From a virus (lineage: Duplodnaviria; Heunggongvirae; Uroviricota; Caudoviricetes), in the IMG/VR virus record IMGVR_UViG_2703718820_000006: a stretch of DNA of 4,102 nt; one strand, given 5' to 3'. The position numbers are program-made. This document shows, one piece after another, positions 1 through 4,102 of the stretch; the first letter of the stretch is position 1; every line of letters starts with the position of its first letter.

Positions 1-3000
1 GACATATCTGACGAACCTGTATTTCAAAATTAAAGAAGACCGGCGTAAGGCGGCGCGGGGAGAGTAGACGATGAATAAACAATACGAACTGGTTGTTAAA
101 GGGATAAATATTTACCCGGATAAGATTACTGGGTATACGTCACTGTTGTTGCCAAATGTGGTGATTGATCTTGATCGTGTTGAAGGTGCCCCGCTGGAGT
201 TTTACGAAGCTGAGGCGAAAAAGAAGGCGAAGCAGTTTTTCATGGATATTGCTGCCGGGTTATGTGAAGGGAACGAACCGTTGCCGGAAAAGCGCCTCTG
301 TTCAGAAGAGCGGTATACCATACAAATTAACAATGCATATAACACGATACAGTCAGAAAAAGATGATATCGAATCACGCATTGAAAAACTGGAGAACAGC
401 GTCGTTGAACTGAATAAAAAACTGTCGGTGCAGATCCCTTCCGAAGGTGAAAAAAAACGCCGTGATGAGCAGTTCGCGGCGTTTTACGATTATTGCCGGA
501 AAGTGATGAGCAGAAATCTCGCAGAGTGTTTCCGTATTCAAAAAAACAGAGAGCGCTCTGCAAATAGTGAGATTCTGGATAATTTTTTAAAGGGGACGCA
601 TCTCGCCAGTGATTGTTTCATTGCTCATTCTTTTGGTGGCTTTCATGAGGCCATCAAACATGATGTTGAGAGAAGTCCAGGTATCCTCTGTTCCATTCCC
701 GTAAGCATCGAAATAGACACAAATACGATAACCGGTGAACTCGTTACCGCCGGAGTCGGTATATTCCGTCATGAGGGGAACGATGCCAAAGGTTCCTTTA
801 CAAAAATCGGGCCGTTCTTTCTGAAGGTAGAGCGATAGTTTGTTAAGTACCCATCCGACAGCTCGCTCATTTTGGTTTATTTTCGTATCGCGAAACAAAA
901 ATTCGAAGCGGCCAGATGACGCATGGGTGCAACCAAATACCGGGGCGTATTCATCAACCTTTGGTGTTCCTGAAAACATGCAGTCCGTGCTCTCGAATGC
1001 AGATGAATTGCTGTTGATCCACTTAACAAAAGAAAAAAAGGTCTGAATCGCTTGTCTGTCTGAATATTCAACAAAATCCTCAAGGTGTGTCTCGATCAGT
1101 TCCGGGTGTTTACGAAAGTCATAATATTGACCGGGACGATATTTATGAGTGGTTGTTTTATCCCATGGTTGTGCTCTGCGTCCCTGTAAACGGAGGTCTG
1201 CCGCTGGATAGATAAGCATAAGTAATCTCCTGGTGGAATGTAATCCACGATCATCCGGGGAAATTAAGAACCCGCCAGTGCCCACCACTGGTGGGGTGAA
1301 GGCTTAACATATCCAGGGATTCGGAACCGATAAATCCTGATAAATATCCATGAACACCAAAATCAAATACGGCCTGTCGGCTGCCGTTCTGGCGCTGATT
1401 GCCGCAGGGGCGCCTGCGCCTGATATTCTCGACCAGTTTCTGGATGAAAAAGAAGGTAACTACACCACGGCATACCGTGATGGTGCGGGTATCTGGACCA
1501 TCTGCCGGGGTGCCATCATGGTGGATGGTAAGCCTGTGATTCCTGGCATGAAGCTGTCGAAGGAAAAATGCGACCGGGTTAACGCTATCGAACGGGATAA
1601 GGCGCTGGCATGGGTGGCGAAAAACATCAGAGTGCCACTGACCGAACCTCAGAAAGCGGGGATCGCGTCATTCTGCCCTTACAACATTGGCCCCGGAAAG
1701 TGTTTCAGCTCAACGTTTTACCGGAAACTGAACGCCGGAGACCGTAAAGGCGCATGTGCTGAAATTCGTCGCTGGATATATGACGGTGGTCAGGACTGCC
1801 GTATCCGCTCAAATAATTGCTACGGTCAGGTATCCCGTCGCGACCAGGAGAGTGCGCTGGCATGCTGGGGTATCGACAGGTAGCAGAATATTTTGCTGAA
1901 AAATGACGTTTGCTCACGCGGACGGATAACACGAAATCCTGCGAACTGGCAAAATGCAAGTGAATAAAGTCAGGAAGATTGTTTCACGCAGAGGCACCGT
2001 AATGGTGTCTTTGTCATTTCTGCGCTTCGCACAAGCGTAAATAAACCAAAGAACCTTTCAGGATGAGCCCTGGTGGATAACCGGCAGTGGTCTGGTTAAC
2101 CCTCTTTGGGCTGGTTATTCCTGTGCGCAGGGTTCATCACTAAAAGGAAATAACCGATGAATATGATAACCGTGCCGTTTCACGGCGATTCTCTTTATGT
2201 GGTTAACCATAACGGCGAACCATACGTTCCCAAACCTGTCGTTGCGGGGATGGGGCTGGCCTGGCAATCACAGTTGGCTAAGTTAAGACAGCGTTTTGCG
2301 TCAACTATAACGGAAATCGTTATGGTTGCTGAGGACGGGAAACGACGCAATATGGTGTCCCTGCCACTTCGAAAACTTGCAGGCTGGTTACAAACCATCA
2401 ATCCCAACAAAGTAAAACCCGGAATCCGCGACAAGGTTATCCAGTATCAGGAAGAGTGCGACGATGTTCTCTATGAATACTGGACGAAGGGTTTTGTCGT
2501 TAATCCTCGTCAAATGAGCGTGATGGAAGAACTCAACCAGGCATGCGCTGACATGAAACGGGATAAAAACATTGCCAGTCTGTTTGGTACAGGGTTAAAC
2601 GAATGGAAACTGGTTAAAGCCGCGCATGTATCAAAAATTCGCACGTTGATAAACGAAGCGAATCTGCTGATTGGTTTTGTCCTGGCTGATACAGGCAAAG
2701 GAAAAATCACAAAGACGGATTGATGGAGTGGCGTCTAATGATATCAGGCAAACTCATAATGCTGGCGAAGGGCCTTTGTGTAATCGTCGGGATTTCATTT
2801 TCACTAATGCTGGTTGTTCTTTTTCCTTCCATAGCCTGGATGGCGTTGAGTTCGGCAGGGCTGGTGGGGTGACAGTGACTGATGACGACAATTTATTTAA
2901 ACAGATGAGTACTGAATTTATTCGGGCAACGGCATTTGCCATTCGCATTGTGGCAATTGCGGTTCTAATCCGGGAAATCCGCTGGTGGTGAAATGAATAA

Positions 3001-4102
3001 TAACTCTGCAAAACCGTTTCTCCCGTGGTTAGGAGGGAAGCGTCGTCTGGCAAAACATATTCTGCCGTTATTTCCTGAGCACACTCTGTATGTGGAACCG
3101 TTCTGTGGCGGTGCGGCACTGTTCTTTATGAAAAAACCGAGCTGCGCTGAAATCATCAACGATATAAACAGTGATATCGTTAATCTCTACCGTGTGGTGA
3201 AGTACCACCAGGAGGAATTTTCCCGCCAGTTTCAGTGGATGCTCGCCAGTCGTGAGATGTGGAATGAGGTGATAAATCAGCACACGGAGTACATGACGGA
3301 TATCCAGCGGGCTGTCCGTTTCTTTTTTATCCAGAAGTGCGCGTATGGCGGAAGAGCATACAGTCGGGCATTTGGAGTTAAAACTCACAGACCGCAGATA
3401 ATCCCCGGGAATACAGAGCAGTTATTGCAGGAAGCCCGTGATCGGCTGGCGCGGGCAACTATTGAACACCTTGACTGGGAGGTCTGTATCGCACGGTATG
3501 ACCGCCCGACAACGCTGTTTTACTGCGATCCTCCGTATTGGTTGGATGGTGGTTACGGCATTGATTTTTCATTCTGCAATTATGAGCGCATGGCAGAACT
3601 TGCCCGCACAATAAAAGGCAAAATGATTATATCCCTGAACGATACGCAGGAAATGAGACGATTGTTTGAGGGGATGAATATTCATCATGTTGCTCATCGT
3701 TATACTGTACCACGTGGTAAGACAAGCAGTGTCAGCGAGCTGATAATCTGCAATTTCTGACAGGGGGCATGGTGAGCATAAACCGAATTCTTTCCGCGTT
3801 TACTGTTATTCTGCTGGTGGTCTGTGGTGCGCTTAGTCTGGGGCTGAATCATTACCGCGATAACGCCATCACCTACAAAGCGCAGCGCGATAAAAAAGCC
3901 AGAGAGCTGGAACAGGCGAATGCCACCATTACTGACATGCAGGTGCGCCAGCGTGATGTTGCTGCGCTCGATGCAAAATACTCGAGGGAATTAGCCGATG
4001 CGAGAGCTGAAAATGAAACTCTGCGTGCTGATGTTGCCGCTGGTCGTAAGCGCCTGCGGATCAACGCCACCTGCCCCGGTACCGTGCGTGAAGCCACCGG
4101 CA

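Follow-up and report, generated by a model that had tools for sequence, protein, structure and literature searches.

Orphan methyltransferases of the Dam type are known from several phages, among them T4 Dam, the Dam domain of P1, the early-region Dam of 933W/VT2, gp27 of phiE125 and the Dam of VP882. The leader of the lambda N gene contains a hairpin that is sensitive to RNase III. Stx phages carry many morons, extra genes inserted among essential late genes (PMC4104026), and the Stx-phage Ant that has experimental support is an early-region gene, different from the one described below, whose product has a C-terminal domain in common with P22 Ant (PMC3064807). Rha of P22 and phi80 is encoded by a late-operon gene and harms phage growth in hosts without IHF (PMC4936722).

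Here we analyze a 4,102-nt stretch of viral DNA (hereafter the window), which is the late lysis region of a lambdoid, Stx-type prophage of E. coli; an E. coli draft assembly matches it with the same gene order and identical proteins. We propose that the interval between the endolysin gene R and the spanin gene Rz is a mosaic cargo slot in a Q-dependent late operon, and that it holds two independent contents: a unit composed of a leader, an Ant-like gene and a 49-aa ORF, and a late methylase. We give this reading a probability of roughly 0.6.

Layout of the lysis region

The gene order on the plus strand is R, an Ant-like gene, a 49-aa ORF, a 28-aa ORF, a D12-class methylase and Rz/Rz1. An earlier reading of this DNA (hereafter the original prediction) had described cargo between R and Rz, and every gene that it named there was recovered on the plus strand, by profiles from Pfam, PHROG and NCBIfam or, for Rz1, by reading of the sequence. 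The features are as follows.

1350..1883, plus strand: R endolysin (lysozyme), the left border of the cargo slot (PF00959, 88.8 bits; phrog_7)
1988..2037, plus strand: stem-loop with a U-rich tract behind it, at about 1988-2020, and a short G+C hairpin that pairs 2024-2027 with 2033-2036, from RNAalifold pairs
2046..2156, plus strand: pseudoknotted leader RNA of the Ant-like gene, about 110 nt, from fold z, covariance model R2 and the pseudoknot
2157..2723, plus strand: Ant-like protein, 188 aa, P22_AR_N plus ORF11CD3 (PF10547, 142 bits; PF10549, 30.4 bits; phrog_524)
2723..2872, plus strand: 49-aa hydrophobic membrane ORF (phrog_4906, E 9e-26)
2905..2991, plus strand: 28-aa hydrophobic ORF (MSTEFIRATAFAIRIVAIAVLIREIRWW), annotated as WP_244445990.1 in E. 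coli SCU-111
2993..3760, plus strand: orphan D12-class N6-adenine DNA methyltransferase, 255 aa, allele type A (PF02086; TIGR00571; PADLOC MTase_II, 3.8e-92)
3769..4102, plus strand: Rz i-spanin, cut by the window end (PF03245, 96.3 bits)
3998..4102, plus strand: Rz1 o-spanin in the +1 frame, with the lipoprotein signal LVVSAC, cut by the window end; read from the sequence

A counterpart of Rz1, a PF06085 gene, is called at the equivalent place in another locus (L007). The start of the 49-aa ORF overlaps the stop codon of the Ant-like gene (TGATG), an overlap through which the two genes are predicted to be translationally coupled, and the pair is annotated together in all related loci. The 28-aa ORF falls within a 120-nt segment (2873-2992) that directly precedes Rz in other prophages. 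Elsewhere in the window, a reverse-strand ORF (590-1219) with its own terminator resembles a classical moron.

The two contents of the slot are distributed independently

The Ant-like gene and its 49-aa neighbor were present in 717 of 5426 complete E. coli genomes, at a median of four and a maximum of ten copies, and the pair also occurs in many Stx phage records. This pair is the ordinary occupant of the R-Rz slot. The methylase was found in 5 of the 5426 genomes and, at the DNA level, in none of 50,697 phage records; its carriers include pathogenic STEC strains. The Ant-like gene was thus about 140 times more often found without the methylase than with it, and in one genome, that of strain 2013C-3033 (locus L003), the methylase was found without the Ant-like gene. 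The original prediction had stated that Ant-like genes occur in this slot in some enterobacterial prophages and that a Dam gene there was less familiar, and these counts bear it out on both points.

Every context of the exact methylase protein, and of its 87%-identical cluster, lies in the R-Rz interval. Junction alignments resolved the gene as a clean, ORF-sized insertion of 768 bp exactly before Rz, the start of which is remodelled to MVSI... downstream of the methylase. The insertion is tightly packed, beginning 1 nt after the preceding stop codon and ending 8 nt before Rz.

An orphan methylase with allele-specific patches

Its sequence identifies the methylase as an intact, solitary member of the Dam/D12 family. 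It scored 95.9 bits against PF02086 (cutoff 22) and 115.2 bits against TIGR00571, where it barely passed the cutoff of 114.85. The original prediction had credited it with both an FxGxG and a DPPY motif. DPPY is present at residues 179-182 (D179-P-P-Y182) and is invariant across the family, but the literal FxGxG is not there: motif I reads F37-C-G-G-A, that is, FxGG with the last G replaced by A, and the motifs follow the alpha-class order. The methylase looks functional, to the extent that an intact ORF, the presence of DPPY and mostly synonymous differences outside the variable patches described below can indicate this. By sequence, its closest relatives of known structure are DpnM and E. 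coli Dam, which we take to be GATC enzymes, followed by a weaker match to 7m6b. Identity to E. coli Dam is about 26%, and the best identity to any phage protein was 57.6%. Of the residues with which E. coli Dam reads GATC, K9 is matched by a P, L122 and P134 have no counterpart in the beta-hairpin, which is shorter here, and an equivalent of R124 is possible only in the alignment to DpnM.

The claim that there is no partner endonuclease held up within the window, where the neighbors are small ORFs and Rz, and also for four related prophages (L001, L002, L006 and L018), whose flanks of 6-8 kb contain lysis, terminase and head genes only and no endonuclease. A role for the methylase as a component of a defense system was considered and rejected, as the only PADLOC matches were to generic models for type II and orphan methylases, and the gene has no partner.

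Alleles of the methylase differ mainly in three patches (aa 116-143, 183-195 and 219-247), in which nucleotide identity between alleles is 61-67%, compared to a mostly synonymous background of 93-99%. Among the differing codons, 18 of 23, 7 of 9 and 16 of 19 were nonsynonymous in the three patches, respectively; outside them, the ratios of synonymous to nonsynonymous differences were 13:8, then 6:1 and 1:0. In alignments, patch 1 falls on the beta-hairpin with which E. coli Dam reads DNA (residues 118-139), and patch 2 immediately follows the catalytic DPPY. Given these positions, specificity may vary between alleles or may not be for GATC.

The alternative that follows is that the enzyme has a non-GATC target, or that its alleles have different targets, with recognition elements exchanged between alleles and anti-restriction directed against particular systems. 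We consider this unlikely, although it is the most probable of the alternatives. It draws on the concentration of nonsynonymous change in three patches of an otherwise conserved gene, on the alignment of patch 1 with the Dam hairpin, on the lack of conservation of K9, L122 and P134, and on the fact that the D12 class includes enzymes with non-GATC specificities, for example GATATC and CATG. Against it, the three closest solved relatives by sequence (DpnM, E. coli Dam) are presumably GATC enzymes, the TIGR00571 cutoff was passed, if barely, and the variable patches are also the least conserved stretches of the methylase family as a whole. Moreover, GATC was assigned, provisionally, to Dam homologues of Enterobacterales prophages by the REBASE authors (PMC5005818). 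GATC is the most probable target.

The methylase is most likely made late

A scan of the whole window returned a single sigma-70-type match (3719-3747), which lies inside the methylase gene. The same scan found no sigma-70 match upstream of the methylase and no terminator downstream of it, and the terminators predicted in the window were not above chance frequency. As it has neither a promoter nor a terminator of its own, the methylase is not an autonomous moron, and it is most likely made only late, along with the lysis proteins and any toxin genes. We infer this late co-transcription from position alone. Relatives of the gene are also found at late-operon ends: gp27 of phiE125 is the next gene after those for holin, endolysin and Rz, and the VP882 gene comes after the tail genes.

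E. coli hosts possess their own Dam, and a GATC enzyme would be useful to the phage only if host Dam lags during the burst. This counts against our own reading of the methylase, and the redundancy weighs as well against the idea that it is a lysogenic-conversion gene, switched on in the lysogen to reprogram host expression epigenetically. Orphan methylases can regulate genes, and there are pathogenic STEC strains among the hosts, but we regard lysogenic conversion as improbable because the gene has no promoter and sits deep in the late operon, past the usual late terminator, packed between ORFs, and because the majority of prophage methylases are reported to act during the lytic stage only (PMC5005818).

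A pseudoknotted leader precedes the Ant-like gene

Across its copies in E. coli, the 273-nt gap between R and the Ant-like gene shows 93% conservation, and the window scan found no match to the sigma-70 consensus within it. At the position matching 1988-2037, other genera have a canonical intrinsic terminator and a GCGC hairpin (contexts of 18 leaders); the stem-loop of the window (1988-2020) was not flagged by the terminator scan. Further candidates were examined and rejected. The A/U-rich sequence AUAUAAA ahead of the pseudoknot arm resembles a -10 box, but a start 7 nt downstream would drop a covarying arm from the transcript. Known sRNAs lie elsewhere, AsxR and AgvB being 3' of stx and the Pas sRNAs in the esterase-holin interval, and Rfam gave no match. 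Finally, strings similar to GAUGAG and CUGAGGA raised the possibility of a hammerhead or other self-cleaving ribozyme, but no Rfam ribozyme model matched.

The last ~110 nt of the gap fold into three helices and a pseudoknot. P1 pairs 2054-2058 with 2143-2147, the latter containing the Shine-Dalgarno sequence AAGG; P2 pairs 2062-2072 with 2128-2138; and P3 pairs 2075-2084 with 2111-2120, enclosing an apex at 2085-2110. The pseudoknot joins 2046-2052 (CCAAAGA) to 2103-2109 (UCUUUGG). The fold has a z-score of -3.0 in the window and of -3.0 to -4.0 across four genera. For diverged leaders, the combination of MAFFT and RNAalifold produced misalignments and did not recover the helices, which were recovered by a hand-annotated covariance model and iteration. 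Covariance model R2, whose seed contains no window-type sequence, matched the window leader with 51.6 bits (E 5e-10). R2 matches precede not only Ant-like genes but also genes for Rha (including P22 rha), KilA-N and TerB, and each match ends at ATG+5. In P22 the rha leader spans 39,522-39,643, and the analysis suggests that this gene has been annotated with a start 69 nt too far upstream and may begin at 39,644 instead.

In the leader alignment, 95.5% of cells were paired, compared to 35-47% with slid partners; there were 199 compensatory cells, and 28 of 30 pairs had compensatory changes, all of these covariation counts coming from an alignment fitted to the model. Of 29 leaders, 28 have the pseudoknot, formed by 20 different pairs of arms, and strong covariation spans eleven genera. 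When the window and the loci of P22, Xenorhabdus, Serratia and Hamiltonella were searched against the 4227 families of Rfam 15, nothing matched at E <= 1. The leader combines features that are typical of riboswitches, namely a covarying fold with several helices, a pseudoknot, and a platform that holds the ribosome-binding site. Because the Shine-Dalgarno sequence is paired within the basal helix P1, the Ant-like protein is most likely translated only once the fold has been opened or cut. The trigger of the translational gating that we infer from this arrangement could be a ligand, a protein or RNase III.

We also weighed whether the conserved hairpin acts as DNA and not as a regulatory RNA, for instance by marking a boundary for recombination, as a palindrome bound by a protein or as what is left of a terminator. 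It does sit at module junctions of mosaic phages and recur ahead of unrelated genes, and there are reverse-strand matches at low score. However, pairing drops from 95.5% to 88.3% on the antisense strand, a difference due to 75 G-U cells; the position of the 3' end at the start codon never varies, and the Shine-Dalgarno sequence is inside P1; a pseudoknot with 20 covarying arm pairs would be meaningless in duplex DNA; and no U-tract follows the leader hairpin. An element acting as DNA is, in our estimation, a poor explanation for these observations.

The leader belongs to the Ant-like gene alone, and the methylase has no share in this region. What had originally been described as a regulatory region of the Ant-like gene and methylase is therefore real, as a covarying RNA leader of the Ant-like gene, but no sigma-70 match marks it as a promoter and it is not shared.

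The Ant-like protein combines P22 Ant and Rha domains

The similarity of the Ant-like protein to P22 Ant, 48% identity, is limited to residues 1-127, which correspond to residues 10-136 of P22 Ant. No P22_AR_C domain was found in the Ant-like protein, whereas P22 Ant has this domain (PF10548) at residues 200-272. Its C-terminal region instead matches ORF11CD3 (30.4 bits against a PF10549 cutoff of 25), a domain common to Rha proteins. Similarity of this region to Rha itself is remote, at 32-33% over 34-42 residues, and there is no match in the Ant-like protein to the N-terminal Phage_pRha domain (PF09669) that P22 and E. coli Rha proteins carry. The domain matches argue that the "antirepressor" is a chimera in which the N-terminal domain of P22 Ant has been joined to a C-terminal domain of the Rha type, so the original label of antirepressor-like rests on the N-terminal domain and not on the C-terminal one. 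Control of the kind found in immI finds no counterpart either, as no sar match was detected in the window by a tool that does detect sar in P22. AlphaFold modelled the protein only poorly (pLDDT 64), and neither Foldseek against the PDB with this model nor a PDB sequence search returned meaningful relatives.

Least probable of all is the original proposal, which places the Ant-like gene and the methylase together in a single co-regulated induction and anti-restriction module with its own promoter, coupling induction by the Ant-like protein to a shield, provided by the methylase, against GATC-sensitive restriction: the two genes are close together on the same strand, behind a conserved non-coding region and with an Ant-type N-terminal domain in the first, but their distributions are independent (717 against 5 genomes, with the methylase alone in strain 2013C-3033), two small ORFs lie between them, the gap has no sigma-70 match, the same leader precedes Rha, KilA-N and TerB genes with no methylase nearby, the Ant-like protein lacks P22_AR_C and the supported Stx-phage Ant is another, early-region gene (PMC3064807), and a late-operon gene cannot start the induction of its own prophage.

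Discussion

Our preferred reading, a mosaic cargo slot with two independent contents, would work as follows. The usual occupant is a unit made up of a pseudoknotted leader of ~110 nt, a regulator-like protein of 188 aa and, coupled to it, a membrane peptide of 49 aa. In the basal helix of the leader the Shine-Dalgarno sequence is paired, and opening or cutting of the fold would let the Ant-like protein be made. In a rare sublineage, a 768-bp methylase gene was inserted exactly before Rz, bringing neither promoter nor terminator. The methylase would be made late and would methylate newly replicated phage genomes before they are packaged, and the methylated progeny DNA would then be shielded from restriction in the next host.

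A more ambitious joint claim is that the leader represents an undescribed, portable class of cis-regulatory RNA and that, separately, the methylase alleles have exchanged recognition elements and differ in their targets. We hold this combination tentatively, at somewhat less than even odds.

The methylase, taken by itself, is of modest interest, being one more orphan phage methylase, if at an unusual site inside the lysis cassette of an Stx-type prophage. Its allele patches, which include the predicted DNA-reading hairpin, offer a natural test of how such enzymes keep or change their targets. The leader carries more weight. Hundreds of STEC genomes each contain several copies of an uncharacterized "antirepressor" gene, and that gene is a relative of the poorly understood Rha and stands behind the same covarying pseudoknotted RNA. 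The leader provides a handle, accessible to mutation, on when late-region regulators are made, and it allows a test of regulator cross-talk among the co-resident prophages that control toxin release. If the leader does represent such a class of RNA, it would gate the translation of cargo genes for Rha, Ant-like, KilA-N and TerB proteins in temperate-phage late regions across Enterobacterales, P22 rha among them, and it could supply the control that is missing from the long-known IHF-dependent phenotype of Rha.

Comparison with known systems

Like other phage orphan Dams, the methylase of the window has the D12-class order of motif I, recognition region and DPPY, lacks an endonuclease and belongs to a temperate phage. 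The gene for Burkholderia phiE125 gp27 (52.6% identity) is similarly placed, with holin, endolysin and Rz as neighbors where the late operon ends. Unlike those enzymes, the methylase of the window is encoded inside the lysis cassette, with the endolysin on one side and the spanins on the other, and only in a rare sublineage of E. coli, and its alleles are mosaic in patches related to recognition. In being an extra gene between essential late genes, it resembles the morons of lambdoid phages, but it differs from them in having no promoter and terminator of its own.

The Ant-like protein shares with P22 Ant, encoded in immI, an N-terminal P22_AR_N domain (48% over 127 residues), but it has ORF11CD3 in place of P22_AR_C and is encoded in a late lysis cassette that has none of the arc, mnt and sar context. 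It is like Rha of P22 and phi80 in its ORF11CD3 C-terminal domain, its length of ~180 aa, the place of its gene next to those for lysis within the late operon, and the presence of the same pseudoknotted leader directly upstream; it is unlike Rha in that its N-terminal domain is P22_AR_N and not Phage_pRha.

The leader itself recalls riboswitch platforms and the lambda N leader, being a long, structured 5' leader whose basal helix holds the ribosome-binding site before the start codon, and, like many aptamers, it has a conserved pseudoknot. It differs from the known leaders that sequester a Shine-Dalgarno sequence in lying outside the 4227 Rfam families and in being portable between unrelated genes in the late regions of phages.

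Gene content of the window

The window (4102 nt) comes from the late operon of an E. coli prophage of the lambdoid, Stx type and covers its lysis part; E. coli draft contigs carry the identical protein set in identical order. An Ant-like gene and a methylase gene lie between R and Rz, as in the original prediction, with small corrections only: the interval also holds two small ORFs that had gone unlisted, and the methylase has the predicted DPPY motif but not a literal FxGxG, its motif I reading FCGGA.

Features of the window
71-838, +, DUF1327 gene
1350-1883, +, R lysozyme
2157-2723, +, Ant-like ORF (P22_AR_N plus ORF11CD3)
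2723-2872, +, 49-aa hydrophobic ORF (TGATG overlap with the Ant-like stop)
2905-2991, +, 28-aa hydrophobic ORF
2993-3760, +, D12-class adenine methyltransferase
from 3769, +, Rz
from 3998, +, Rz1 (embedded in Rz, +1 frame)

Translation of the 49-aa ORF is coupled to that of the Ant-like gene, its constant companion, and the 28-aa ORF stops 1 nt before the next start codon both in the window and in SCU-111. A putative role in lysis is conceivable for these two hydrophobic ORFs. At the other end of the window, the family match of the DUF1327 ORF is confined to residues 1-160, and its last ~95 codons run antisense through a reverse-strand ORF (590-1219), whose insertion evidently replaced the original C-terminus. 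RefSeq flags the equivalent gene as truncated in related genomes.

A pseudoknotted RNA leader upstream of the Ant-like gene

The most interesting item of the locus is the RNA leader, ~110 nt long, directly 5' of the Ant-like gene. Among E. coli copies, the 273-nt gap separating R from this gene shows 93% conservation, and its fold is more stable than that of shuffled sequence (z = -3.4). The 3' portion of the gap forms a ~95-nt hairpin, at the base of which CCUUU (2054-2058) pairs with AAAGG (2143-2147), the Shine-Dalgarno sequence of the Ant-like gene. Orthologues in Photorhabdus, Hamiltonella and Serratia have 5' hairpins of the same architecture and different sequence (z -2.8 to -4.0).

Seven leaders from Xenorhabdus and Photorhabdus, their structure annotated by hand, served as the seed of a covariance model, which we iterated once. 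The iterated model, R2, matched the window at 2046-2162 (51.6 bits, E 5e-10), window-type leaders being absent from its seed. Every R2 match ends five bases past a start codon, the genes concerned being late-region genes of enterobacterial prophages, and R2 found no leader upstream of P22_AR_N-only proteins in other genera.

Genes downstream of R2 matches
Ant-like genes: eleven genera
Rha genes: directly after Rz in E. coli; phage P22 39,535-39,649
KilA-N genes: Hamiltonella, Symbiopectobacterium; two leaders in tandem units
TerB-family gene: E. coli prophage; weaker match

Leader coordinates in the window and comparison loci
Window: 2046-2156
L025 (phage P22): 39535-39649
L004: 5493-5610
L014: 2751-2864
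L029: 2157-2270
L032 (Hamiltonella defensa): 3394-3506, 4497-4613
L049 (Symbiopectobacterium): 1469-1585, 2389-2506
L002: 1611-1719

Covariation was counted over 29 distinct R2 matches, in an alignment fitted to the model. Standard pairs fill 95.5% of the 861 pair cells; sliding the partners by one to three columns lowers this to 35-47%, and shuffling to 73%. Changes occur on both sides in 28 of the 30 pairs, and compensatory cells number 199 (13-31 in the slid controls). The sense strand pairs better than the antisense (95.5% vs 88.3%), and it is the 75 G-U cells that give the fold its sense-strand specificity.

The pseudoknot was examined independently of the covariance model, by comparing the 5' flank with the 3' end of the apical loop. 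A flank-loop helix of at least 6 bp is present in 28/29 leaders and reaches 7-8 bp in 27/29, with 20 different arm pairs, among them CCAAAGA/UCUUUGG in the window, CCACCGA/UCGGUGG in P22, and CACAGAA/UUCUGUG and CCCCGAG/CUCGGGG elsewhere. Flanks matched to partners other than their own reach 6 bp in only 10% of cases, and shuffled flanks do so in 8.7% (7 bp in 2.4%). This helix is a pseudoknot. Rfam 15, which recovered P22 sar as a positive control, has no match for the leader in the window or in the P22, Xenorhabdus, Serratia and Hamiltonella loci, and we found no description of it in the literature, our coverage of which was incomplete.

In insect-symbiont APSE-like prophages, two tandem leader-plus-gene units (KilA-N, Ant-like) lie within or next to the lysis cassette, at 3394-5318 of L032 and 1469-3025 of L049. 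In P22, the leader fold takes in the annotated rha start (39575, L025; region 39575-39646). By the leader model, the start codon is the in-frame one at 39644, and Rha read from there keeps complete Phage_pRha and ORF11CD3 domains. The first 23 residues of the annotated protein probably go untranslated.

Proposed control by the leader

At 18 loci, each leader is preceded by a three-part context spanning 62 nt 5' of the pseudoknot arm (window 1984-2045, L004 ~5430-5492, L025 ~39460-39521). The first part is a G+C hairpin carrying a U-run; most genera have a canonical terminator here, and the window a weaker one; the second is a small GCGC-loop-GCGC hairpin; the third is an A/U-rich linker with consensus GCGCAUAUAAA. 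This context may extend or insulate the RNA element. The Ant-like gene had been predicted to have its own regulatory region, and it does, in the form of an RNA leader. The upstream contexts hold no promoter consensus. The terminator-type context and the lack of such a consensus suggest that the downstream gene is probably reached only by antiterminated late transcription.

With the ribosome-binding site locked in P1, the basal helix, by a pseudoknot-stabilised fold, translation should need the fold to be opened or cleaved. The fold might respond to a ligand or a protein, in the manner of a riboswitch or autoregulatory operator, and the ORF11CD3 domain common to Ant-like and Rha proteins would be one candidate partner. 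Other candidate triggers are RNase III, on the model of the RNase III-sensitive hairpin in the lambda N leader, and temperature. Late transcription combined with translational gating is the working model we infer to be most likely. The rha gene is reported to be regulated by IHF and to harm phage growth in hosts without it (PMC4936722); its leader is a natural candidate site for that control.

The Ant-like protein is related to Rha

The description 'antirepressor-like' holds for the N-terminal 127 residues, the only part that aligns with P22 Ant (48% identity). It fails for the C-terminal domain, which is ORF11CD3 in the Ant-like protein and P22_AR_C in P22 Ant; by its domains, the 'antirepressor' is a chimera. 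The Rha proteins of P22 and of E. coli prophages, where the gene lies just after Rz, combine Phage_pRha with the same ORF11CD3 domain, direct similarity to the Ant-like protein being remote. Orthologues with 61-94% identity occur across Enterobacterales, and a location within or next to the lysis cassette is retained by those of Photorhabdus, Hamiltonella and Serratia.

In many Stx phage records, BP-4795 and Stx2 phage 86 among them, the Ant-like gene is labelled 'ant'. The sole Stx-phage Ant with experimental support is a different, early-region gene of phi24B, which shares its C-terminal domain with P22 Ant (PMC3064807). A late-operon Ant-like gene cannot start the induction of its own prophage. 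If its product acts on repressors, a co-resident prophage is a plausible target; Gifsy antirepressors reportedly act on the repressors of co-resident prophages. Structure prediction gave no help on activity. Widespread but as yet uncharacterised, the Ant-like gene is a relative of Rha.

The methylase is a later insertion

The Ant-like gene with the 49-aa ORF is ordinary content of the R-Rz slot: of 5426 complete E. coli genomes, 717 have this block by megablast (median four copies per genome, maximum ten). The methylase is present in five of the 5426 (three at >=99.8% identity, two at 86%), in keeping with the original view that Ant-like genes there may not be unique and that a Dam insertion is less familiar. 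None of 50,697 phage records contains it at the DNA level, and its closest phage protein relative has 57.6% identity. A large protein collection has the exact protein, and a cluster 87% identical to it, from E. coli only; all their contigs read R, Ant-like gene, 49-aa ORF, methylase, Rz.

Insertion boundaries were defined by aligning the window to a methylase-free prophage and to a second methylase variant. The gene sits exactly between the preceding small-ORF stop and the Rz start, with spacers of 1 nt (left) and 8 nt (right). Downstream of it, the Rz start is altered from ATGAACCGT to ATGGTGAGCATAAACCGA: at the junction (window 3761-3790 vs 5894-5915 of comparison locus L005), ATGAACCGT is now ATAAACCGA, preceded by a new ATGGTGAGC, giving an MVSI N-terminus. 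This right junction is common to both variants, which implies a single insertion event. The left junction differs: the methylase follows the 28-aa ORF in the window, where other prophages have that ORF directly before Rz, and the 49-aa ORF in the second variant. Strain 2013C-3033 carries the methylase with other small ORFs in place of the Ant-like gene, so the two are not a co-inherited module, contrary to the prediction, although both genes are indeed present. The methylase is a clean, later insertion and no partner of the Ant-like gene. Its predicted orphan status is borne out, since no restriction gene lies within 6-8 kb of it in four related prophages.

Target sequence and role of the methylase

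The methylase exceeds the TIGR00571 cutoff by 0.35 bits and has as solved relatives DpnM (E 1e-17), E. coli Dam (E 3e-15) and, more weakly, 7m6b (E 2e-12). Its identity to E. coli Dam is only about 26%. In that enzyme's DNA-bound structure, K9, L122, P134 and a beta-hairpin that reads GATC reportedly have roles; in alignments, K9 is a proline in the methylase, and its hairpin is shorter, without equivalents of L122 and P134. Among methylase alleles at the R-Rz locus, nucleotide identity is 93-99% with mainly synonymous changes, except in three patches of 61-67% identity.

Variable patches of the methylase
Patch 1: aa 116-143, window 3338-3421; 18/23 differing codons nonsynonymous; aligns with the Dam beta-hairpin
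Patch 2: aa 183-195, window 3539-3577; 7/9 nonsynonymous; directly after DPPY
Patch 3: aa 219-247, window 3647-3733; 16/19 nonsynonymous

Cluster P0002 is recombinant between the two types. The patches could be exchanged recognition elements; alternatively, constraint could be relaxed where the family as a whole varies most. PMC5005818 takes prophage Dam homologues of Enterobacterales as provisional GATC enzymes. On these comparisons GATC is not a secure target, and a non-GATC or allele-specific specificity seems improbable but deserves serious weight.

The ORF is intact in all copies, DPPY is invariant and allele differences outside the patches are mostly synonymous; the methylase looks functional. 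The window has a single sigma-70-type match, internal to the methylase gene and close to the gene's 3' end, and terminator-like sites are no more numerous than in shuffled sequence. The tight packing is most simply read as placing the gene on the Q-dependent late transcript. Made late, the enzyme would methylate progeny genomes before packaging, and the packaged DNA would be protected from restriction in the next host; this is the best-supported role. Most prophage methylases are active in the lytic stage only, according to authors including a REBASE curator (PMC5005818). Other members of the subfamily are likewise distal genes of late operons: phiE125 gp27 immediately follows holin, endolysin and Rz, and the VP882 gene comes after the tail genes. 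The methylase is a new, unusually placed addition to the well-known orphan phage Dam-family enzymes.
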